Below, in pieces: positions 42,197-54,077 of a stretch of DNA of 64,000 nucleotides (its first letter is position 1; the number at the start of each line of letters is the position of its first letter). Both the position numbers and the translations under genes were made by a program. The notes beneath the pieces are model-generated. The model made no database searches, was not told the origin of the DNA, and was given only the letters and a program-made list of their open reading frames with translations. The stretch comes from an uncultured Phycisphaeraceae bacterium (GTDB lineage Bacteria; Planctomycetota; Phycisphaerae; Phycisphaerales; Zrk34). The stretch spans positions 26,233 through 90,232 of the forward strand of contig CALOAZ010000099.1 in assembly GCA_942491355.1 (NCBI GenBank). The letters run 5' to 3'.

Positions 42197-43895
42197 ATGG
42201 CATTCGTTCCGCACGATTTTGATCCCGCCAGCCGCGATCAAGTCGTGGCGATGTGCCAGGCGCTACTCGACCGCGCCATCGATTCGCCCGCAACGCTCGA
42301 TGCGTGGTTCGCCGATCTGTGTGAACTGTTCGAAACGATCGACGAACACGAAAGCCGCACGTCGATCGAAAACGCCTGCCATACCGATGACGAAGCCATC
42401 GAAAAAGCCTATCTCCATGTCGTCCAGGTGATCCGGCCCGCATACGAACCGCTGTATTTCGAATTGCAAAAAAAATGGCTCGACAGTCCGCATCGCGACC
42501 GCACCACTCTCGAAGGCCGTGACGTGATGGCACGGTCCTGGAAGGCCGACGTCGAATTGTTTCGGCCCGAAAACATCGCCCTGCAAACTCAACTTGCCGA
42601 ACTGAGCAAGGATTACGGCAAAGCCTGCGGCGCGATGATGGTCGATTTCAAAGGCAAGACGCGCACGCTGCAGCAAATGGCGGCCTTTCTCGAAGAAACC
42701 GACCGGCCCACGCGCGAAACCGCGTGGCGGCTGGTGTCGGATCGGCGCCTGCAGGATCGCGCCGCTTTCGACGCGATTTTTGATCAGCAACTCAAGCTCC
42801 GTCAGCAGGTCGCCGAAAACGCCGGCCATGCCGACTTTCGCGATTACATGTGGGTGGCCAAAAAACGTTTTGATTACACGCCTGAAGACTGCCATGCCTT
42901 CGGTGATGCGGTGGCCGAACATGCACTGCCGCTGCTGCGCCGCTTGGATGACAAGCAGCGCGATGCGCTCGGCGTCGACACGCTGCGCCCGTGGGATGGG
43001 GCGGTCGATCCGAAAGGCCGACCGCCGCTGCGCCCCTTTGCCGAAGAAGATATCGATGGCTTCGTCGAGAAAACGCGTCTCACTTTCGAACGCTACTGCC
43101 CGACTTTTGCCGAACAGTTCGCCACGCTGCGCACCAACGGCAATCTCGATCTCGGCAGTCGACCCGGCAAGCCGCCCCGGCGGCTTTCAGGCCTCGCTCG
43201 AAAAATCGCGCCAGCCGTTCATCTTCATGAATGCTGCCGGCATGCAGCGCGATGTCGAAACATTGTTGCACGAAGGCGGCCACGCGTTTCACTACATCGA
43301 CAGTTCCAGCATCGCGAACCTTTTTGCCCGTCACGCACCGCTCGAATTCTGCGAAGTGGCGAGCATGAGCCAGGAACTGCTGGCGACGGATCACTACGAC
43401 ATTTTTCACGACGATCCCGCCAATGCCGCGCGGGCCAAGCGCGTGCAACTGGAAGGCGCGATTCGCGTGTTGCCCTGGGTCGCCACGATCGACGGCTTTC
43501 AGCACTGGCTCTACACGCATCCGGGCCACGACGTGGCGACGCGCACCGCCGCCTGGATGGAGATCGTTACGCGCTTCTCCACCGGCGCGACCGATTGGTC
43601 GGGGCTTGAAGACGCTCGCGCCGCCATGTGGCAGCGCCAGGTGCATCTGTATCAAGTGCCGTTTTATTACATCGAATATGGCATCGCGCAACTCGGTGCG
43701 CTGCGCGTGTGGCTCAATCATCGGCGCGATGCCGCAAGTGCCATGGCCAAATTGCGAAGCGCCTTCGCGCTGGGCGGCACACGACCACTGCCGGAACTGT
43801 TCGAAGCGGCCGGCATTCCGTTCGATTTTTCGCCGGCGGCCGTCAAAGAACTGATCGAAGCCGTGGGGCGCGAATTGGAACAATTGCCGGACTGA
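42197..43895 (+). CDS. pepF: M3-family oligoendopeptidase (PepF-like), frame break near 43170-43180
   Basis: ORF 42197.. is protein-like to '...NLDLGSRPGK' and then becomes nonsense. ORF 42780..43895 in another frame continues '..PGGFQASLEKSRQPFIFMNAAGMQRDVETLLHEGGHAFH' (HExxH) through to the C-terminus. Confidence 0.85.
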
Positions 43896-44034: not shown

Positions 44035-45435
44035 ATGAGCAAATCCACCGATATCCGCGTTGTGGGCGCTGCCGTTTACTTTTTGCCGGTCGAAACGCGC
44101 GTGCCTCTGAAATTCGGTACCGAAGCGCTGACATCTGTGACCTGTGTGCGCGTTCGACTCACGGTCGAAGGTGCCGATGGCCGTCGCGCCGACGGCTGGG
44201 GTGAAACCCCATTGAGCGTGCAATGGGTGTGGCCGTCGACCGACCCCTATGCGCCGCGCCATGACGCCTTGAAAGCTTTCTGTCTTTATCTCGCGAAAGC
44301 TTGGGCGCATTGCGAAGTGACAGGCCACCCGATGGAAATCGGCGATCCATTCAATCGACTCGAACTTGATGCCCGACTCGAATCGTTCAACGCCGCACTG
44401 AAAACACCAACACCCATGCCGCATCTGGCAGCGCTGGTGTGCAATTCGGCTTTCGACATTGCGCTGCACGATGCTTACGGCGTCCTTCACAACGTCGACA
44501 TCTACGACACCTACAACGCACAATGGATGACACGCGATCTGGCTGGTTTTCTGGAACCCGCTGAAGATTCAGCCGTGAATTTCGGCGGCCTGTTTCCAGA
44601 TCATTATCTCGCGAAGGACCGCCCCGCGCGACTGGATGCCTGGCATCTGGTGGGGGGGCTCGATGCCCTGGATGAATCGGATTGCACCGGCGACGAACCG
44701 AAAGACGGCTATCCCGTGCAGCTCAGAGATTGGATTCACACCGATGGTCTGACCTGCCTGAAAATCAAACTGCGCGGCAACGACGCGGCGTGGGATTACG
44801 ATCGGCTGGTGCGCATCGGGAATATCGGCGCCGAAACCGGCGTGAAACATCTCACCGCCGACTTCAATTGCACCGTCACCGATCCGGCTTATGTCGTGGC
44901 GATTCTGCATCGCCTCGCGGATGAACATCCTGCGCTGTATGACGCGATCGATTACGTCGAGCAACCGTTTCCTTACGATCTGGAAGCGCATCGCATCGAC
45001 GTGCATGCGGTCTCCGAACTCAAGCCGTTGTTTCTCGACGAAAGCGCGCACGATTGGCGCTTCGTAAAACTCGGTCGGGCGCTGGGATGGACGGGCGTCG
45101 CTCTCAAAACCTGCAAAACGCAGACCGGCGCGATTCTTTCGGCCTGCTGGGCCAAGGCTCACGGCATGCCGCTCATGGTGCAGGATCTGACCAATCCGAT
45201 GCTCGCGCAGATTCCGCACGTGCGCCTGGCTTCAGCAGTGGGCACGATTCGCGGCGTGGAAACCAACGGCATGCAGTTTTATCCCGAAGCCTCTGCGCCC
45301 GAAGCCGCAGTGCATCCGGGTCTATATCGGCGGCGCCAAGGCACGGTCGATCTGTCGACACTGCGCGGCTCGGGCTTCGGTTATCGACTGGATAAAATCA
45401 CGCGCCCACTGCCGGAACCCGCCTGCAGCCTTTGA
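44035..45435 (+). CDS. Enolase-superfamily (mandelate racemase / muconate lactonizing enzyme-like) protein
   Basis: Barrel-domain metal-ligand contexts 'LTADFNC', 'YVEQPFP' and 'FLDES', plus 'LKIKL'. The size of 466 aa is larger than typical MR/MLE members. Confidence 0.7.
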   Translation: MSKSTDIRVVGAAVYFLPVETRVPLKFGTEALTSVTCVRVRLTVEGADGRRADGWGETPLSVQWVWPSTDPYAPRHDALKAFCLYLAKAWAHCEVTGHPMEIGDPFNRLELDARLESFNAALKTPTPMPHLAALVCNSAFDIALHDAYGVLHNVDIYDTYNAQWMTRDLAGFLEPAEDSAVNFGGLFPDHYLAKDRPARLDAWHLVGGLDALDESDCTGDEPKDGYPVQLRDWIHTDGLTCLKIKLRGNDAAWDYDRLVRIGNIGAETGVKHLTADFNCTVTDPAYVVAILHRLADEHPALYDAIDYVEQPFPYDLEAHRIDVHAVSELKPLFLDESAHDWRFVKLGRALGWTGVALKTCKTQTGAILSACWAKAHGMPLMVQDLTNPMLAQIPHVRLASAVGTIRGVETNGMQFYPEASAPEAAVHPGLYRRRQGTVDLSTLRGSGFGYRLDKITRPLPEPACSL

Positions 45436-45437
45436 GG

Positions 45438-46736
45438 TTATTCGTCCTCTTCCGATTTGGCTTTGAGATGGCGCTCGATGTCGAGCAGGGATTGATACAC
45501 CTGCTGCGCGGTCTGATATTCGGGATGATTCGGATCCTTCGGCTTGAGCACGCGCGCCGCCAGCGCATTCACCAACAGCGACGACTCGCCGGCGGGATCG
45601 AATTGAACCAAACCTTTGAAATCGGGGTTCGACAGCGGCTTGGTCATCTGCAACATCAGGAAGAACAGATCCACCGCCTTGTCGACCTTGCGGTAACCAT
45701 TGCGAATGTAACGGCTGGTCACCAGACCGCTGTCACACATTTGGCCGAGCACTTTCTGAATGCCCGAAGAGATCATGACCTGCTCGAACATCTTCATCAG
45801 CATCTTCGAGCGACTCAGATCCTCACCCACGCGCACCGACGAACCTAGATCGATGAAGCCCACACCGCGCTCGGTGATCACCATGTTGTCCGGCCGCAGA
45901 TCCAGATGGATCACATTAACGGTGTCGTGCAGGTCGCGCAGTAAATGACAGGCCTGCTTGCAGAATTCGACCTGCGTGATGGGCTTGCCGCCTGACCCGT
46001 TACGCAGCCAGGTCATCGAGAAATTGCTGACATAGCCGCGCTCGTTCTTTTTCAGGTCGATCACGCGCGGAAAACTGCCGCGCAAATCTTCGGGCAGATA
46101 TTTCTCGACGACTTTGAGGATGCCGACCTCGCGCGTGAGAAACATCGGAAAGATCTTGTTGGTGAATGACATCGCGCGTTTGCGGATATCGTCCATGTCG
46201 AGATTGGGGTGGCGCAGATTCAAACGGCGCTCCATCATCTCGACCGTGGGCACGCGTTTGCGCACGACGTAGTCGCCTTCGGCGATGGGATGCGGTTCGA
46301 GTCTCACGTCGTACGTGAAGCGATTTGAAAACTCACCCACATGAATCAAGTGCGTTTTGCGCGCAATGAAATACCAGTAATCCTTACGCAAGCCGGGAAT
46401 CGGCGGTCCATCGGTGAAATGCGTCGGTTCGCATTCCACGATGAATTCCTGGCGCGCATGAAACGGCTTGGCCGTGAAATTCACATCGTCCGGATCGGTA
46501 GACACAAAAACGAACTGCCCGCCCCAGCGAAGTCGATCGAAGACCTGATCGGGCATGCGCAAATCGCCGGGGCCGGCAAAATGATAATCCACCGGGCCGT
46601 CATCGATGCGCAGCGAAGTGCTGTGCGCAAAACGCTGCCACTCGCTCTCGTGCGTCAGAACGCGAGCGATCACGGCTCGAAAGAGCTTGGCATGCGGGCC
46701 AGTTTCCCACCGCTGCTTCATCACACCCTCTGGCAC
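45438..46736 (-). CDS. Atypical protein-kinase-like (PKL) protein, paralog B
   Basis: 'VIHLDLRPDNMVITERGVGFIDLGSS' (HxDxxxxN catalytic loop plus a DxG metal-binding Asp). High similarity to the adjacent gene. The start could be the ATG at 46721. Confidence 0.6.
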   Translation of the reverse strand: MPEGVMKQRWETGPHAKLFRAVIARVLTHESEWQRFAHSTSLRIDDGPVDYHFAGPGDLRMPDQVFDRLRWGGQFVFVSTDPDDVNFTAKPFHARQEFIVECEPTHFTDGPPIPGLRKDYWYFIARKTHLIHVGEFSNRFTYDVRLEPHPIAEGDYVVRKRVPTVEMMERRLNLRHPNLDMDDIRKRAMSFTNKIFPMFLTREVGILKVVEKYLPEDLRGSFPRVIDLKKNERGYVSNFSMTWLRNGSGGKPITQVEFCKQACHLLRDLHDTVNVIHLDLRPDNMVITERGVGFIDLGSSVRVGEDLSRSKMLMKMFEQVMISSGIQKVLGQMCDSGLVTSRYIRNGYRKVDKAVDLFFLMLQMTKPLSNPDFKGLVQFDPAGESSLLVNALAARVLKPKDPNHPEYQTAQQVYQSLLDIERHLKAKSEEDE

Positions 46737-46781
46737 ATCTGATGCATTTGAACCGCAGTGAAGCGGCGGACATCACTTCGT

Positions 46782-48095
46782 TTAAGGCCGCGCGTCGATC
46801 TGTTCCACGCGATCGCGCTGCGCCGCATCCACCTTGCGCAATTCCGGCAGATGCGATTCGATCTGCAGAATACCGCGATACACATCGGCCGCCGTCTGAT
46901 ACAGCGGATTTTCCGCTTCTCGCGGCTTGAGGATCAGGCCCGTCAACTGACTCAGCGCCTTGGCTTCGGTGCTGTCGGGCGTGAAGTCGATCAATCCCTT
47001 GAAGTCGGGATTGGCCAACGGCTGATTCATCTGAAGCGTCATGAAGAACAAATCCACGGCCTTGTCGACCTTGCGATAACCGTCGCGAATCACACGACTG
47101 GTCACCACGCCGCTCTGCGACATCTGCCCGAGCGTACGCTGAATCTGCGAGGTGATCATGACCTGCTCGAACATCTTCATGAGTACTTTCGACTTCGAGA
47201 GATCTTCGCCGATGCGCACCGACGAACCGAAATCGATGAAACCCACGCCATGTCGTGTGATCACCAGGTTGTCCGGGCGCAAATCCAGATGAATCACTCG
47301 GGCGGTATCGTGCAAAGCCCGCAGCATGTCCGACATCTGCTTGGCGAATTCAAGCTGTTTGATCGGGGGCTCACCGCCCGTCGAGTTGCGCAGCCAAGAC
47401 ATGGCAAACTTGGTCACGTAGCCCGATTCGTTTTTCTCATGGCTGATCACGCGCGGCACGCGATGCTTGTATTGCTCGGGCAGATATTTTTCGAGCACTT
47501 TGAGGATGCCGGTTTCGCGCGTGAGGAATAACGGGAACACGTTGTGCGTGAACGTGCGGGCTCGCTCGGCCACGTCTTCACGGTCCAGATCCGGAAAGCG
47601 CATTGCGAGGCGCTGTTCCATCTGCTTCTGCTCCGGCACCACTTTCAGTACCGCGTAGCCGTTTTCCTCATTGGCATCCGGGATCAGTTCCACGTGATTG
47701 GTGAAGCGATCCGAAAACTCACCCGGGCGCACGATGAACACCTTGCGCGCCGTGAAGTAGTAGAAATTCTTTTTGAAGCCCGGCACCAGGCCGACAGAGA
47801 TCGGCGTGGGCGTGCGCTCGATGCGATACTCACGTCGCTCGGCAAAGACTTCATGCAGCTTGCGCACTTCGGACTGATCGTGCGAGACCACGATCACCAC
47901 GCCGCCCCAGCGCATGCGCTCGAAAGCCTGATCTGGAATCTGCAGATCACCCGGGCCGCAAAGCAGAAAATCCGCCATGCCTTCGGTACCGAAGACCACG
48001 GTGTTATGACCAAAAAGGCGGTACTCGGGATCCGCCGCGAGAACCTTTTCGCGGATCAGTTCGAAAAGTCGTGTTTTAGCGCCCGGGTCAGCCAT
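46782..48095 (-). CDS. Atypical protein-kinase-like (PKL) protein, paralog A
   Basis: 'VIHLDLRPDNLVITRHGVGFIDFGSS'. Shares blocks 'FLTRE.GILKV.EKYLPE', 'KMFEQVMI' and 'YRKVDKAVDLFF' with paralog B. Start at the ATG 48095 ('MADPGAKTRLF'). Confidence 0.6.
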   Translation of the reverse strand: MADPGAKTRLFELIREKVLAADPEYRLFGHNTVVFGTEGMADFLLCGPGDLQIPDQAFERMRWGGVVIVVSHDQSEVRKLHEVFAERREYRIERTPTPISVGLVPGFKKNFYYFTARKVFIVRPGEFSDRFTNHVELIPDANEENGYAVLKVVPEQKQMEQRLAMRFPDLDREDVAERARTFTHNVFPLFLTRETGILKVLEKYLPEQYKHRVPRVISHEKNESGYVTKFAMSWLRNSTGGEPPIKQLEFAKQMSDMLRALHDTARVIHLDLRPDNLVITRHGVGFIDFGSSVRIGEDLSKSKVLMKMFEQVMITSQIQRTLGQMSQSGVVTSRVIRDGYRKVDKAVDLFFMTLQMNQPLANPDFKGLIDFTPDSTEAKALSQLTGLILKPREAENPLYQTAADVYRGILQIESHLPELRKVDAAQRDRVEQIDARP

Positions 48096-48264
48096 CAATC
48101 TGCCGACACCCTCCGCATGGCAGAGGATCGAGCCTCCTCCACAAGTGCTTCCGCGGGGGAGATATCCGCTCCAACCCGCACCAACGACGGACATTATAGC
48201 CCGACCGTCCCTTTGAGCCTGCGCCTCGTTTTCCCCGGTGGATTATCGGGCATCACGCAATGGT

Positions 48265-49479
48265 TCATCGGCCGGTTCGCAGGAAATATTCCATCAGCTC
48301 ATGCCCGTAGGCGATGTGCTGACCGGCCTCTGACGCATTGCGTTCGGTGAACGGTCCGGGGCGCGTCGACCGGGGCACACCCGTACCCGCCATGCAAAAC
48401 GGGGGTGGCGTGGCATCGTGCTTGCGCGTGGCGACACACGTGTAATGATCGGGCAGGCACAAAGTGCGCCACGCATCGAATGATTTGAGGCGATCGAGCA
48501 CCGGTCCGACCACCTTTTCATCCATGGCTTCAAGACTCGCGACCTTGGTGGCGGCATCGGCCTGATGCGATGCTTCATCCGGTGCTTCGACATGCACGCA
48601 GACCAGATCGTAATGGTCCAGCGCTTCAATCGCGTGACGTCCCTTCGCCGCATAATCGGTATCGTGATAGCCGGTGATGCCCGGAACTTTCAGACGCTCC
48701 CAGCCGATCAACGCGGCAATACCCGCCAGCAGATCCACCGCGGTAATCATCGCGCCGCGCAAGCCGAAACGAGACTCGAATGTGGCGATGTCCGGGCGCA
48801 TGCCTTGGCCCCAGAGCCAGACATGCGTGGCCGGCGATTCGCCCATTTCACGCCGCGTGCGATTAACTTCATGATCGGCAAAGCATTCGGCGCTGAGCGC
48901 GATCAGATCTTGAATCCGCTTTGCATCAGGCCCCCCACTGGGCAAATATCGGTCATAAGGCTCGCCCGGCACATCGTGCGGCGGCGTGGTCTTGAGTTTG
49001 CGGTAGTCGGCGCCGCTCGCATCGATCATGAGATTGCGATAGCTCACGCCCGGCTGAAAGCGAAGCCCTTCGGCCAAGCCGCGCGATTGCGCCAGAGCCG
49101 CGAAGTCTGCCAACAGACGATGGCTTTCGGCGCTGGAGATGTGCCCCGCAGAGTGATCGGCCATCCGGCCATCAGTCACCGTGATCAGATTGCACCGGAA
49201 GATCCATTCGCCGGGTGCCGGATCAATCCCCATCGCGGCCGCTTCAAGTGGCGCCCGACCGGGGTGAAACTTCACCGGGTCATAGCCGAGCAGCGACATG
49301 CAACACACATCGGAACCCGCCGCCCAACCTTCGGGCGTGGTCGCCACGGTGCCCTGGCGCCCACCCAGCGCGATCGAATCCATGTTCGGGATATGCGCCG
49401 CTTCAAAAGCGGTCTTACCGCCCAGGTCTTCCAGCGGCATGTCCGCCGCTCCATCCGGAATGAATATGACGTACTTCAT
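48265..49479 (-). CDS. apgM: Cofactor-independent phosphoglycerate mutase, archaeal-type (ApgM family)
   Basis: 'MKYVIFIPDGAADMPLEDLGGKTAFEAAHIPNMDSIA', 'GSDVCCMSLLGYDP', 'FRCNLITV..GRMADHSAGHI', 'VHVEAPDEASH'. Confidence 0.85.
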   Translation of the reverse strand: MKYVIFIPDGAADMPLEDLGGKTAFEAAHIPNMDSIALGGRQGTVATTPEGWAAGSDVCCMSLLGYDPVKFHPGRAPLEAAAMGIDPAPGEWIFRCNLITVTDGRMADHSAGHISSAESHRLLADFAALAQSRGLAEGLRFQPGVSYRNLMIDASGADYRKLKTTPPHDVPGEPYDRYLPSGGPDAKRIQDLIALSAECFADHEVNRTRREMGESPATHVWLWGQGMRPDIATFESRFGLRGAMITAVDLLAGIAALIGWERLKVPGITGYHDTDYAAKGRHAIEALDHYDLVCVHVEAPDEASHQADAATKVASLEAMDEKVVGPVLDRLKSFDAWRTLCLPDHYTCVATRKHDATPPPFCMAGTGVPRSTRPGPFTERNASEAGQHIAYGHELMEYFLRTGR

Positions 49480-49568
49480 GCGAGAATATACCGTGTGTGC
49501 CGCACGAAAGGGGTGAATCCGCCGCACACCCTCTAAGATGGTGCCACATCACTGCCGGAGGACCGACC

Positions 49569-50693
49569 ATGATCATGCCGCTGTTTCGACGCACCCTGAT
49601 GATATTGACGTCAGGCATACTGCTGAGCGCCTGCGCACCGGCAGGCACGATCGTCTCTGAATCCTGGGGCGAAACCGACGGGCAGCCGATTTTTCTGTAC
49701 ACGATGACCAATGGCAGCGGCCTGACGGCAAAGGTCACCAACTACGGCACGCTCCTGACCGAAATGCACGCGCCGGATCGCCACGGCCAGACCGCCGATG
49801 TGGTGCTGGGCTTTGATCATCTGGCTCGATATCTGCAGGGCCATCCCGCATTCGGCAGCAACGTGGGGCGCGTGGCCAACCGCATCGCCGGTGGCGTGTT
49901 TGCGCTGGATGACAAAACCATCACGCTCGAAAAAAATGCCGGCGCTCATCACATTCACGGTGGGCGAAACGGATTTCACAAACGCGTGTGGAACGTTGAG
50001 ATGAAGCGCACGCCCGACGGGCCAGCCATACGATTCAGTCGGCGCAGCCCAAGCGGCGAAGAAGGCTACCCGGGCAATCTCGATGTCGCGATCACTTACA
50101 GCCTCAGCATGCGCAATGAGTTGATCATCGATTTTGAGGCGACCACGGATCAACCCACGCTCGTGAATCTCGCGCATCACAGCTATTGGAATCTGGCCGG
50201 TCACGGTGCTGGATCGGTGCTCGATCACGAACTGAAGATCGAAGCAGATCGATACATGCCGCATGACGGCGCGGGCTTACCCACCGGTGCCATTTTGCCG
50301 GTCGACGGTACGCCGCTGGATTTCCGGCACTCGAAAAAAATCGGCGCCGACATGGCGCGGCTCGCGCCGCTCGATGGATATGACCACAATTTTGTGGTGC
50401 GCGGTGCCACCGACACTTTGCGCCCCGTGGCTGAAGTTTATGAACCCACTTCCGGGCGCGTGATGACGATCCAGTCCACGCAACCCGGCGTGCAGCTCTA
50501 TACCGCCAACGGCTTGAATGCCAAGCAGAGCGGCAAGGGTGCAACCTACGGGCCCCACGGCGCTTTATGCCTGGAAACCCAGCACTTTCCGGATGCGATT
50601 CACCATGAAGGCGATCCGAACTGGCCCTCGGTCATTCTGCGACCGGGTGCGATTTACAAGCACCGCATGGTCATGCGATTTTCGACCCGTTGA
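49569..50693 (+). CDS. galM: Aldose 1-epimerase (galactose mutarotase), lipoprotein form, copy 1
   Basis: Lipobox 'LLSAC'. 'VGRVANRIAGGVF', 'HHIHGG', 'NLAHHSYWNL', 'GALCLETQHFPDA'. Confidence 0.88.
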   Translation: MIMPLFRRTLMILTSGILLSACAPAGTIVSESWGETDGQPIFLYTMTNGSGLTAKVTNYGTLLTEMHAPDRHGQTADVVLGFDHLARYLQGHPAFGSNVGRVANRIAGGVFALDDKTITLEKNAGAHHIHGGRNGFHKRVWNVEMKRTPDGPAIRFSRRSPSGEEGYPGNLDVAITYSLSMRNELIIDFEATTDQPTLVNLAHHSYWNLAGHGAGSVLDHELKIEADRYMPHDGAGLPTGAILPVDGTPLDFRHSKKIGADMARLAPLDGYDHNFVVRGATDTLRPVAEVYEPTSGRVMTIQSTQPGVQLYTANGLNAKQSGKGATYGPHGALCLETQHFPDAIHHEGDPNWPSVILRPGAIYKHRMVMRFSTR

Positions 50694-50769: not shown

Positions 50770-51954
50770 ATGGAGGATTCCCCAATGCCCACCTTTTGTT
50801 TTCGCACCGCCCTTCGTGGCGCCGGACTTCTGACGCTCACCGCCGCACTCAGCGCCTGCCTCGGTTCAAAGGATGCTGCCATGACCACTGCACCCGCTGC
50901 TGCAAACAGCGCCATCACCGAAGCGCCCTTCGGCGAAACCGATGGCAAAGCCGTCAAGCTTTTCACGCTCACCAATGCCAACGGCCTGGTTGCCAAGATC
51001 ACCAATTACGGCGGCATCGTCACCGAACTGCATGTGCCGGATAAAAGCGGCAAGTCTGCCGATATCGTTCACGGCTTTGCCAAACTCGATGATTATCTCA
51101 AAGGCCATCCTTATTTCGGCGCGATGGTCGGTCGCGTGGGCAACCGCATCAAGAACGCCACGTTTACGCTCGACGGCAAAACCTACAAACTCGCGGCCAA
51201 CAACGGCGCGCATCATTTGCACGGCGGCCAAAAAGGCTGGGACAAAGTGGTGTGGGATGCCAAAGCGCAGAAATCCGCTGACGGCCCGACATTGATCCTC
51301 ACCTACACCTCTGCCGATGGCGAAGAAGGCTACCCCGGCACCGTGCAAGCACGCGTGGTTTACACGCTCACGAACAACAACGAGCTGCGCATCGAAACCA
51401 CCGCAACTGCCGACAAAGCCACGCCGGTGAATGTGGTGCATCACACCTATTGGAACCTCGGCGGCACCGGCTCGGGATCCATCAAGAATCACGTGCTCAA
51501 ACTGCATGCCACCAAATACACACCCGGCGATGAAACACTGGTGCCCACAGGAAAAATCGCGCCGGTCTCCGGCACGCCCTTTGATTTTTCGACGGGCAAA
51601 GCCATCGGCAAAGATCTGACGGCTGCCGGTGGCGATCCGGTCGGCTACGACCTGAACTTCGTGGTGGATGGCGACGCCGCCAAACTGCGTCCTGTCGCCC
51701 GCGTGAAAGATCCTGCCAGCGGACGCGTGATGGAACTTTTTGCCGATCAACCCGGCGTGCAGTTCTACACCGGCAACTTCATGGATGGCACCACCACCGG
51801 CAAAGGCGCCAAGCACGCGCAGCATTCGGCATTCTGCCTTGAGACGCAGCAGTTTCCGGATTCGATCAACAAACCCGCCTGGCGCGATCGCGTCGTCCTC
51901 AAGCCCGGCAAAACCTACACGCACACGATGATTCATCGCTTCACGGCGGAGTAA
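50770..51954 (+). CDS. galM: Aldose 1-epimerase (galactose mutarotase), lipoprotein form, copy 2
   Basis: Lipobox 'ALSAC'. 'VGRVGNRIKNATF', 'HHLHGG', 'NVVHHTYWNL', 'SAFCLETQQFPDS'. Confidence 0.88.
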   Translation: MEDSPMPTFCFRTALRGAGLLTLTAALSACLGSKDAAMTTAPAAANSAITEAPFGETDGKAVKLFTLTNANGLVAKITNYGGIVTELHVPDKSGKSADIVHGFAKLDDYLKGHPYFGAMVGRVGNRIKNATFTLDGKTYKLAANNGAHHLHGGQKGWDKVVWDAKAQKSADGPTLILTYTSADGEEGYPGTVQARVVYTLTNNNELRIETTATADKATPVNVVHHTYWNLGGTGSGSIKNHVLKLHATKYTPGDETLVPTGKIAPVSGTPFDFSTGKAIGKDLTAAGGDPVGYDLNFVVDGDAAKLRPVARVKDPASGRVMELFADQPGVQFYTGNFMDGTTTGKGAKHAQHSAFCLETQQFPDSINKPAWRDRVVLKPGKTYTHTMIHRFTAE

Positions 51955-52080: not shown

Positions 52081-52665
52081 ATGCTGATTAGTGAGCTTAA
52101 TTTTAACAATCTTTGTGATTTTCTCCGCCCAATATTACGCAAGCAAAGCCGCGAAGATATCCACGATGCTGGAGCGTCAATATTAAATTTCTCGCCTTGC
52201 CTTGAGGGCGAAGTGCGTCGGCATTGCGAAATCAAGCCAACACTGCGCTATCGCAATTATGATATTACAGTCTGCTTGTTGTGCTACTACGAGGGATACG
52301 GGATAGCGGCGCACTTAACATTTAGGGCTAAACCTAAAATCTGGAACTTATTTCCAAACGCTGGTTTAGTGTCGGACTTAAAGCGAGCCTGTATCTTGTC
52401 TATGGGTCATCTGAAATTTGAAAAATGTGACCATGATAATAAGTACGGCAAGGTTACTGCCTACTGCGATCGCCGCGCGATTAATCCGGAATGGGATCGC
52501 TCATTAGACATGTCGCCGCTAGCAATTTGCCCGAGTGAAAACGATCGCTATTGTTATGTTGAATTGTTTTTTTGGGGTGGAGCTTACAAATTGCTTGATG
52601 GCGAAGTGGTTCCCCGGTCAGATTGGAAGCAATTTTGTGATTACAATAAACTGCTTCGAGTATAA
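52081..52665 (+). CDS. Cys-rich orphan protein (194 aa) in an AT-rich cassette
   Basis: Uninterrupted ORF whose composition differs sharply from its neighbours ('MLISELNFNNLCDFLRPILRK...CEIKPTLRYRNYDITVCLLCYYEG...FEKCDHDNKYGKVTAYCDRR...'). No domain recognised and the RBS is weak. Confidence 0.5.
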   Translation: MLISELNFNNLCDFLRPILRKQSREDIHDAGASILNFSPCLEGEVRRHCEIKPTLRYRNYDITVCLLCYYEGYGIAAHLTFRAKPKIWNLFPNAGLVSDLKRACILSMGHLKFEKCDHDNKYGKVTAYCDRRAINPEWDRSLDMSPLAICPSENDRYCYVELFFWGGAYKLLDGEVVPRSDWKQFCDYNKLLRV

Positions 52666-52757: not shown

Positions 52758-54077
52758 TCAATCGCGTGGCATGTCCACAATCGGAATGCAAACCGGATCA
52801 TCCTGAATCGCTTCGAGCCCCGCGATCTGTTCGGCGGCCGCAGCAATCGCGCCGCCGCTGGCGGCATGCGTGGTAATCACGATGGGCACAAAGCCCGGTG
52901 CGTCGCCGGCCGGTTCATGCTGCAGAATCGCAGAGATTGAAATCTCTTCCTGGCCGAGAATCGAAGTCAGCGCAGCCATCACGCCCGGCTGATCCTTGGC
53001 AACCATACGGATGTAATGGCGCGACATGATTTCTGCCGGGCGCAACAGCTTGGCGGGCTCTTGTTGATCCGGCCAGAGATTCATCGTCTGAAAAGCGTGG
53101 GGATACCAGCCGCCGGCCACATTGATCAGATCACCGACGACCGAACTGGCGGTGGGCATTTGCCCGGCCCCGTGACCCACGAACAGATTCTGATACGCGG
53201 CATGGCCGACGACGCTCACGGCGTTGAGCGCTTCGCGCACCTGAGCGATCGGCTCCTGCTCATCCACGAAACACGGCGAGACGCGCAGCGAAATCGATTC
53301 GCCCTCGCGGCGCGCCACGGCAATCAGCTTGAGGGCATAACCCAGTTCGGCACCGAAATCGACATCGACACCTTCCAGGCCCTGGATGCCGCGACACGAC
53401 ACATCTGCATCGCGCACGCTCATGCCGAAGGCGAGCGATGCAATGATCGCCAGCTTCTGCGCCGCATCGGCACCCGACACATCCAGCGTCGGATCGGCTT
53501 CGGCAAAGCCCATGCGTTTTGCACCGGCCAGGGCATCCTCATATGACATGCCGTCATCGACCATGCGCGTGAGAATGTAATTGCACGTGCCGTTGAGAAT
53601 ACCGTACACCGCATCGATGCGATTGGCGGCCAGACCGAATTTGATCGCGGCCAGCACGGGAATGCCGCCGCAACAAGAAGCCTCGAATGCCAAGCTCACA
53701 CCGTGCTTGCGCGCGAGCGCAAATAATTCGGAGCCTTTGGCCGCAAGCAGACTTTTGTTGGCGGTCACCACATGACGGCCGCTTTCAAGCGCGCGCCGCA
53801 CATAGCCGCCCACCGGATCGATGCCGCCGGCCACTTCCACCACGATCTTGATTTTGGGGTCGGCGAAAAAAGCTTCGACATCATTCGTCAGCACGCCCGG
53901 CGGCAGCGTGGTGTGTCGTTTCGCACTGACATCACGCACCAGCACACGGCGCAAATCGATCGACCGCCCCAGACGCTGCGCGTAAAAACGACCGCGCTCG
54001 CCCGACAGAAGCTTGATCACGCCCTGTCCGACGGTTCCGCAACCAATCAGGCCCACGCCTATCGATTCGTTGTTCAC
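52758..54077 (-). CDS. hom: Homoserine dehydrogenase with a C-terminal ACT domain
   Basis: 'IGVGLIGCGTVGQGV', 'VVTANKSLLA', 'LAFEASCCGGIPV', 'GILNGTCNYILT'. GTG start with a GGAG RBS. Confidence 0.93.
   Translation of the reverse strand: MNNESIGVGLIGCGTVGQGVIKLLSGERGRFYAQRLGRSIDLRRVLVRDVSAKRHTTLPPGVLTNDVEAFFADPKIKIVVEVAGGIDPVGGYVRRALESGRHVVTANKSLLAAKGSELFALARKHGVSLAFEASCCGGIPVLAAIKFGLAANRIDAVYGILNGTCNYILTRMVDDGMSYEDALAGAKRMGFAEADPTLDVSGADAAQKLAIIASLAFGMSVRDADVSCRGIQGLEGVDVDFGAELGYALKLIAVARREGESISLRVSPCFVDEQEPIAQVREALNAVSVVGHAAYQNLFVGHGAGQMPTASSVVGDLINVAGGWYPHAFQTMNLWPDQQEPAKLLRPAEIMSRHYIRMVAKDQPGVMAALTSILGQEEISISAILQHEPAGDAPGFVPIVITTHAASGGAIAAAAEQIAGLEAIQDDPVCIPIVDMPRD

Follow-up and report, generated by a model that had tools for sequence, protein, structure and literature searches.

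The DNA considered here is a window of 64,000 nucleotides (nt) from an uncultured Phycisphaeraceae bacterium (contig CALOAZ010000099.1, positions 26,233 to 90,232 of the forward strand). It carries two adjacent genes, here named K1 and K2, whose products join a kinase-like core to a further N-terminal domain. The question raised by this locus is whether the two proteins are working kinases and, if so, on what they act. We consider it reasonably likely that K1 and K2 are lineage-specific duplicates encoding competent, though divergent, Hanks-type kinases, each with a pseudo-methyltransferase domain at its N-terminus, and that they probably act on proteins.

An earlier analysis made from the letters of this DNA (the sequence-only reading) had reported two same-strand genes 45 nt apart, encoding paralogs of about 432 and 437 amino acids (aa) with long identical blocks. 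The list of open reading frames (ORFs) agrees with this description, and BLASTP aligns K1 with K2 at 54% identity over 413 aa (E 2e-162), long identical blocks included. The motifs that had been quoted, HLDLRPDN, FID(F/L)GSS, V(L/R)K(V/R)VP, LTRE and RWGG, were located at checked coordinates in both genes. The genes, their domains and their key residues are as follows, in window coordinates and all on the minus strand.

46782..48095 (-): K2, a 437-aa two-domain kinase-like protein, seen as an ORF and modeled with AlphaFold2 (AF2)
45438..46736 (-): K1, paralog of K2, 432 aa from GTG 46736 or 427 aa from ATG 46721
46785..47729 (-): K2 kinase domain, residues 123-437, with the (S/T)(D/E)RFT loop where a Gly-rich loop would be, the beta3 Lys, a long alphaC helix, the catalytic loop and DFG, an activation segment that is short and bears helical insertions, and a C-lobe like that of eukaryotic protein kinases
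45441..46343 (-): K1 kinase domain, residues 132-432, aligned to that of K2
47730..48095 (-): K2 N-terminal domain, residues 1-122, an alpha/beta half-domain resembling a truncated class-I methyltransferase, with the motifs PDxxFxRLRWGG and ARK
46344..46736 (-): K1 N-terminal methyltransferase-like half-domain, residues 1-131, aligned to that of K2, with RWGG at 46518-46529 and ARK at 46356-46364
47700..47750 (-): K2 ARK...SDRFT segment, residues 116-132, in place of beta1 and the Gly-rich loop; K1 equivalent at 46314-46364
47643..47645 (-): K2 Lys151, candidate beta3 ATP-anchoring Lys; K1 equivalent Lys160 at 46257-46259
47514..47516 (-): K2 Glu194, candidate alphaC Glu in LTRE; K1 equivalent Glu203 at 46128-46130
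47268..47291 (-): K2 catalytic loop HLDLRPDN, residues 269-276, with H, D, R, D and N invariant; K1 equivalent at 45885-45908
47220..47240 (-): K2 FIDFGSS with Asp288, the metal-binding DFG Asp, and with D288, G290 and S291 invariant; K1 FIDLGSS at 45837-45857

The kinase domain

The K2 structure was modeled with AF2 on a 54-sequence alignment of the family, with a mean predicted local distance difference test score (pLDDT) of 92.8 and a predicted template modeling score (pTM) of 0.89. A Foldseek search of this model against the PDB returned 367 matches at E<=0.001, the best 50 of which are all eukaryotic-type protein kinases (probability 1.00, E down to 3e-7), among them BIKE, AAK1, PknB, IRAK4, PknG, CK2, CaMKK2, Aurora and DYRK1A. 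Searches of PDB sequences, both with the single protein and with the 54-sequence profile, returned eukaryotic-type protein kinases only, the best being DYRK1A and DYRK2 (E 6e-5), and the alignments set HLDLRPDN over HCDLKPEN, and IDFGSS over IDFGSS, of DYRK1A/2. The kinase-like catalytic core that the sequence-only reading had placed in the C-terminal halves is therefore supported by the structural matches and by the alignments to the DYRK motifs alike.

The individual catalytic residues point the same way. Across the 54 family members, which share about 40-50% identity, K151, E194, H269, D271, R273, D275, N276, D288, G290, S291, E297 and D348 are invariant, and K1 and K2 both carry every one of these residues. 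The HxDxxxxN motif and the DFG-equivalent Asp that had been recognized by eye thus correspond to H269, D271, N276 and D288. The previously proposed candidates for the beta3 Lys (K151) and the alphaC Glu (E194) lie in a strand (147-152) and a helix (172-204) of the model, respectively, their structural positions being assigned from the secondary structure of the model only. Since the full phosphotransfer constellation is present in both proteins, neither looks like a pseudokinase, and a pseudokinase reading of the pair was rejected on these grounds.

The K2 core, as modeled, is clearly that of a kinase but strongly diverged, most visibly around the nucleotide. An aligned GxGxx[GAS] motif upstream of the beta3 Lys was found in none of the 54 sequences (an unaligned chance match occurs in 4 of them), which agrees with the earlier statement that the GxGxxG loop is missing. 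The region of the Gly-rich loop instead holds R117, R130 and F131, all invariant, together with K118 and T132 (53/54 each). Between beta3 and alphaC there are about 24 extra residues that include an additional helix, and the catalytic loop has HLD where HRD is usual ("non-RD"). Only nine residues lead from the DFG Asp to the invariant Glu297, and helices occupy the place where the APE motif and P+1 loop would be. The NAK kinases likewise have a helical insertion in the activation segment (PMC2194165). Further along the C-lobe, the invariant D348 falls within a helix of the model and is a candidate for the alphaF Asp, the C-terminal helices are predicted to be present, and a segment of the form P..P...TA.D(I/V)L.G is a candidate counterpart of subdomain XI.

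The N-terminal domain

The first 120 or so residues of K1 and K2 lead directly, in the arrangement that we propose, from a half-methyltransferase domain into the kinase domain. Residues 8-122 of K2, modeled alone by AF2 on a 33-sequence alignment, gave a pLDDT of 90.8. The listed Foldseek matches of this model in the PDB are almost all class-I S-adenosylmethionine (SAM) methyltransferases, and every match at E<=0.001 contains that fold. The best is CbiT (3e05; E 3.8e-5), and others include TrmI, TehB, catechol O-methyltransferases and NNMT. The alignments span 86-105 columns, compared with target lengths of 170-260 residues, and the TM score normalized to the query is about 0.5.

The partial coverage has a clear structural counterpart in the model, where two N-terminal helices are followed by the order strand-helix-strand-helix-strand-strand. 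The model counts five strands and two fold helices after the two N-terminal helices, and so holds the distal part of the seven-stranded fold only. On CbiT (3e05), TrmI (3mb5) and TehB (2xva) the domain superposes on the beta4-alphaD-beta5-alphaE-beta6-beta7 half, and it keeps a motif-III-like "LRWGG + hydrophobic strand" of these enzymes. In the model, this secondary structure and the pattern "PDxVFxRLRWGG + hydrophobic strand" correspond to the beta4-to-beta7 half of the methyltransferase fold. Unlike the class-I methyltransferases, the domain is a half-fold without motif I (GxGxG) and without the post-I acidic residue; motif I was found in the first ~125 residues of none of the 54 family sequences. 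The sequence-only reading had likened this region to the distal half of a class-I methyltransferase fold lacking SAM motif I, and both the Foldseek matches and the absence of GxGxG uphold that description.

At the level of sequence, no methyltransferase match to the domain was obtained in Pfam, NCBIfam or a PDB profile search, the last of which returned only a de novo designed protein (E 0.063). A Pfam scan of ten representatives of odd length, for alternative N-terminal architectures, gave nothing convincing, and these sequences are probably fragments or frameshifts.

Based on its predicted fold, the domain is best viewed as a relic of a methyltransferase, a pseudo-methyltransferase. SAM binding is not expected, because about half of the fold is present and both motif I and the post-I acidic residue are missing. 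The high pTM of the full-length model suggests that the domain is rigidly packed on the kinase. With the SAM-binding half lost, what is retained would probably serve as a structural part of the kinase, the candidate roles being a brace for the N-lobe or a docking surface for the substrate.

The family, its relatives and its likely substrate

A search of 5.8 billion protein clusters yielded 226 homologs, almost all of them full length (420-530 aa), and those with a named source come from Phycisphaera, Phycisphaeraceae, Tepidisphaeraceae or Planctomycetota metagenome-assembled genomes (MAGs). A HMMER profile of the family, searched against 1.84 billion representatives, matched 360 sequences at E<=1e-3. 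Stricter thresholds of E<=1e-10 and E<=1e-30 left 162 and 98 of them, respectively. All full-length matches extend over both domains, and the shorter matches look like fragments. When one genome was scanned for each GTDB species, 269 loci were detected, and among the 80 of these that were listed, every class-level label is Phycisphaerae with the exception of one MAG labeled Gammaproteobacteria. The listed Phycisphaerae loci cover Phycisphaerales, Tepidisphaerales, Poriferisphaera and Humisphaera, including complete genomes of cultured strains, and most of the listed genomes have a single locus. Judging from these searches, the family is small, sharply isolated in sequence space and constant in architecture, and it appears to be restricted to the class Phycisphaerae of the Planctomycetota.

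The one discordant label belongs to the MAG "Gammaproteobacteria bacterium OFTM122", in which a 134-kb contig (JAJFKG010000057.1; locus L043) encodes a typical family member with 44% identity. This MAG is probably misbinned or mislabeled, rather than a case of horizontal transfer, as the study that produced it also yielded several Phycisphaeraceae bins.

To place the pair in its context we used the contigs of five homologs and 85 related loci, and clustered the ORFs within 5 kb of the kinase gene all-against-all at 82 loci. Exactly one kinase match was present at each of the 85 loci, and no other tandem pair was seen. In a neighbor-joining tree K1 falls into one clade with K2 and its closest homolog (P0002) and with two further homologs, P0003 and P0005, which are not in tandem on their own contigs. 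The only other two-copy genome seen, that of Phycisphaera sp. RI_212, has its two paralogs on different contigs. The duplication of K1 and K2 therefore appears to be specific to the lineage, based on the single clade and on the separate positions of P0003 and P0005; by sequence it looks old (about 53-54% identity) but confined to this lineage.

The boundaries of the two genes were assigned with the help of these homologs. The K2 ORF is extensible to an ATG at 48194 (46782..48194, 470 aa), and the extra N-terminal stretch is not conserved; the 437-aa form from the internal ATG 48095 is the database entry P0001, and the same start Met is found in P0002 (83% identity to K2). The true start of K1 is probably ATG 46721, five codons inside GTG 46736, because GAGGG stands just upstream of it and the resulting 427-aa form is a database entry (P0004). 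The distance from the K2 stop to the K1 GTG start is 45 nt, and the spacer is 45-60 nt depending on the start of K1. A perfect TATAAT hexamer is present at about 48195-48210 (-), approximately 100 nt upstream of the K2 ATG and within the 470-aa ORF extension. A consensus promoter scan did not call it, owing to a poor -35 element; K2 may be transcribed from a promoter of its own. The promoter and terminator scan around the pair was uninformative, as shuffled sequence gave counts at least as high.

How the family relates to known kinases bears on what it may phosphorylate. No Pfam or NCBIfam model covers either protein in full, in keeping with the earlier statement that neither domain is assignable to a characterized family, and the matches in Pfam, NCBIfam, PADLOC and PDB sequences are confined to some 50 residues at the catalytic loop, most of them scoring under the curated cut-offs. 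Pkinase (PF00069) scores 25.0 bits for K2 and 15.5 bits for K1, against a gathering cut-off of 31.7, and only over residues ~249-300. RIO1 reaches 19.6 and 13.7 bits against a cut-off of 22. The NCBIfam Bud32 models reach at most 19.6 bits against cut-offs of 125-246, and other NCBIfam kinase models do not exceed about 20 bits, their cut-offs being higher than 100. An assignment to a defense system (PADLOC PD-T4-6, MADS mad6) was considered and rejected, as these are generic catalytic-loop matches of ~50 residues and at most 25 bits, and the neighboring genes are housekeeping or metabolic.

Compared with Hanks-type kinases such as PknB, PknG, DYRK1A/2, BIKE and AAK1, the family has the same bilobal fold, beta3 Lys, alphaC Glu and HxDL(K/R)xxN loop, shares its (I/V)DFGS motif exactly with DYRK, and has candidates for the alphaF Asp (D348) and a subdomain-XI-like segment. 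It differs from them in falling below the Pkinase cut-off, in having HLD for HRD, in lacking GxGxxG and the APE/P+1 loop, and in a fused N-terminal domain that is unique to the family. With RIO and Bud32 it shares weak profile matches, a compact core and a reduced activation segment, whereas its scores are far below their cut-offs and, in the model, some 150 residues following the DFG form a complete helical C-lobe. Such a C-lobe is missing from Bud32 and RIO structures. No Kae1 or KEOPS genes were seen in the homolog neighborhoods that we examined.

The closest competitor to our interpretation sees in K1 and K2 small-molecule kinases like APH and choline kinase, whose substrate would be a sugar, an antibiotic or some derivative of an amino acid, with a possible tie to nearby metabolism. 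APH (PF01636) is the top Pfam family by E-value, with K2 scoring 30.2 bits (E 4.8e-7) against a gathering cut-off of 23.2 and K1 remaining below it at 18.5 bits, and it is matched by 52 of the 54 family members. These enzymes also share with K1 and K2 the HxDxxxxN motif with a downstream Asp and the lack of a long activation loop. The missing Gly-rich loop, the very short activation segment without APE, and neighbors such as the apgM-type gene (TIGR02535), the enolase-superfamily gene and the aldose epimerases would all suit this alternative. However, the APH match covers only 49 residues, positions 145-197 of the 239 in the profile, that is, the universal stretch from catalytic loop to DFG, and over the same stretch Pkinase is matched by all 54 members. 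Among the top 50 structural neighbors, all protein kinases, there is neither an APH nor a ChoK structure; the loop is of the protein-kinase type, DL(K/R)xxN, with its basic residue; and the metabolic neighbors are conserved at none of the 85 homologous loci. We consider this alternative unlikely, although it is the strongest of those weighed here.

The sequence-only reading had left the choice between a small-molecule and a protein kinase unmade. Its kinase part is borne out by fold and residues, and of the two types the core resembles eukaryotic-type protein kinases more than it does the small-molecule kinase families named in that reading. We tentatively favor, at somewhat less than an even chance, a Ser/Thr residue of a protein as substrate, and regard a small molecule as improbable. 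This preference follows from three observations: every one of the nearest structures and sequences is a protein kinase, the loop reads D-L-(K/R)-x-x-N with a basic residue at the second position past the catalytic Asp, and the C-lobe keeps the candidate alphaF Asp and subdomain-XI-like segment. A basic residue at that position (DLRxDN, DLKPEN) is typical of Ser/Thr protein kinases and, to our knowledge, is absent from the loops of APH, ChoK, RIO and Bud32.

Under the interpretation that we prefer, that of a divergent Hanks-type protein kinase, K1 and K2 would be soluble two-domain enzymes of about 430 aa, no signal peptide or membrane segment being evident in their sequences. Their most likely activity, given the fold and the residues, would be ATP-dependent phosphotransfer, in which the ARK...(S/T)(D/E)RFT segment is a candidate replacement for the Gly-rich loop in gripping the ATP phosphates. 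Phosphorylation of the activation loop is probably not required, since the non-RD loop and the short activation segment suggest activity without control at that point.

Several observations weigh against this interpretation. The Foldseek alignments of the K2 model to PDB kinases have TM scores normalized to the target of only about 0.5 and root-mean-square deviations of 7-10 Å; the best Pfam match is APH and not Pkinase; and with no canonical APE motif or P+1 loop, the elements that bind a peptide substrate are not recognizable. In addition, kinase-fold enzymes with intact-looking sites, such as SelO and SidJ, can run other chemistry.

Two further alternatives concern how the proteins work rather than what they phosphorylate. 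In the first, K1 and K2 form an obligate heterodimer in which one paralog regulates the other as a kinase/pseudokinase pair, the tandem being the functional unit. The genes are indeed adjacent and on the same strand, with 45-60 nt and no predicted terminator between them, and both copies have been retained after an old duplication (about 53% identity). However, every invariant catalytic residue is present in both copies, so that neither is a pseudokinase, and the tandem pair recurs at 0 of the 85 related loci, the other two-copy genome having its copies on different contigs. Pairing does not appear to be a property of the family, as there is no tandem pair elsewhere and the loci are mostly single, and we regard the obligate heterodimer as quite improbable.

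In the second, the kinase fold would serve chemistry other than phosphotransfer (AMPylation, glutamylation or nucleotidyl transfer), or act as a nucleotide-binding scaffold or pseudokinase. The atypical N-lobe, in which ARK/RFT replaces the Gly-rich loop, could reorient the nucleotide, and SelO and SidJ are a precedent. This reading has to contend with the strict invariance of the Lys, Glu, HxD, N and DFG constellation; in enzymes that have turned to other chemistry, the kinase catalytic motifs are usually altered in a diagnostic way. We give it slightly less credence still than the heterodimer.

A bolder extension of the divergent-kinase interpretation is that K1 and K2 represent a new kinase-fold architecture, with a methyltransferase relic on the N-lobe and an ARK...RFT phosphate clamp, a new mode of ATP binding and perhaps a Phycisphaerae-specific pathway with a novel class of substrate. 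We regard this as a speculative idea with a small chance of being right.

The K1/K2 family is an unannotated protein-kinase-like (PKL) family, unusual in the relic domain fused to its core, and its nucleotide loop is not of the glycine-rich kind. Uncharacterized kinase-like families are not rare. The kinase fold is, however, among the best-mapped of enzyme folds, yet this family is unseen by Pfam and NCBIfam. A recent atlas of bacterial serine/threonine kinases, comprising ~300,000 kinases in 42 families, was built on PF00069 homologs (10.1101/2025.01.12.632604), and its text mentions neither the K1/K2 family nor Planctomycetes nor a methyltransferase fusion; very likely the atlas misses the family as well. 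A full-text search of the literature found no description of the family, of a fusion between a kinase and a methyltransferase relic, or of Phycisphaerae kinases. The family is of interest for a complete catalytic core that persists after loss of the Gly-rich loop, and for a pseudo-methyltransferase fragment that has become its permanent N-terminal partner. There is also a gain for annotation, since homologs are labeled "hypothetical protein", "phosphotransferase", "serine/threonine protein kinase" or, in several JGI entries, "Bud32", and the labels "Bud32", "phosphotransferase" and "hypothetical" are unsupported. The neighboring genes give no clue to the substrate of the family. Being widespread in Phycisphaerae and usually single-copy, the gene could mark a lineage-specific regulatory function in these poorly understood bacteria, a question that is testable in cultured hosts with a homolog, namely Poriferisphaera sp. 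WC338 and strains ZRK32 and ZRK34.

Neighboring genes

The genes that flank the pair in the window and bear on its context are the following.

44035..45435 (+): enolase-superfamily gene, 466 aa, ending 2 nt from the K1 stop, with a match to the MR_MLE C-terminal domain only (E 1.2e-10)
48265..49527 (-): apgM-like gene, directly upstream of K2 on the same strand
52758-54077 (-): homoserine dehydrogenase gene, some 3 kb upstream of the apgM-like gene and likewise on the minus strand

The arrangement described by the sequence-only reading, with apgM upstream of the pair on its strand and an enolase-superfamily gene converging on it with 2 nt between the stop codons, is correct for this window. 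A significance of this setting was not supported by comparison, as neither the tandem pair nor its apgM and enolase-like neighbors are conserved at 85 related loci, and the "module" of which that reading spoke exists only in this genome. In tblastn searches, seven neighbors from the window (the enolase-like, apgM, argG, two aldose-epimerase, homoserine-dehydrogenase and CPA2 proteins) had no match at the 85 loci. The most widespread neighbor family occurs at 12 of the 82 clustered loci, and such cases represent local synteny within sub-clades. On this comparison of loci, the apgM and enolase neighbors appear to be incidental and the pair not to be a conserved module.

That the pair belongs to a conserved metabolic operon with the apgM-like and convergent enolase-superfamily genes is thus largely refuted and in our view highly implausible: the 2 nt between the convergent stops, the shared strand with apgM without a predicted terminator, and an MR_MLE_C protein near a distant homolog (P0050) speak for it, whereas the enolase-like and apgM proteins found no tblastn match at the related loci, no neighbor family exceeds 12 of 82 loci, and the P0050 neighbor is unlike the window protein (best BLASTP E 0.22, not significant). 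The conserved operon was accordingly rejected on the tblastn searches, the neighbor clustering and the contigs of the five homologs together.

One case of local synteny is an ORF of ~124 aa with a PilZ-like RRxxxR...D(L)SxSG pattern, which at 12 of 82 loci (L085:9312-9686 and 11 others) follows the kinase gene in the same orientation after ~220 nt. It is confined to one Phycisphaeraceae sub-clade and has no NCBIfam match.

The apgM-like protein scores above the cut-offs for both TIGR02535 ("proposed homoserine kinase") and cofactor-independent phosphoglycerate mutase, and its gene is separated from that for homoserine dehydrogenase by two aldose-epimerase genes and one unannotated ORF. The apgM-like gene may, to go by these matches, act in threonine biosynthesis rather than glycolysis, and its occurrence with the homoserine dehydrogenase gene suggests a role for both in amino-acid biosynthesis, unrelated to the kinases. 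The enolase-superfamily protein has no equivalog in NCBIfam.

Some additional features of the window were noted. The aldose 1-epimerase genes immediately upstream of the apgM-like gene are two tandem paralogs with hydrophobic N-terminal leaders (49497-50693 and 50770-51954, both (+)), making them a second tandem duplication beside the kinase pair. An M3-family (oligoendopeptidase F-like) gene at 42197-43895 (+) is split over two frames near 43170-43185, at the GC-rich run agccgccccggcggc; its N-terminal part matches Peptidase_M3 positions 2-110 and its C-terminal part, which contains HEGGH, positions 217-448. This gene is a frameshifted pseudogene or an assembly error. Lastly, a Cys-rich ORF of 194 aa at 52081-52665 (+), with no Pfam match, has a GC content of 0.553 compared with ~0.59-0.61 for most neighboring windows, and may be foreign DNA or not a gene.

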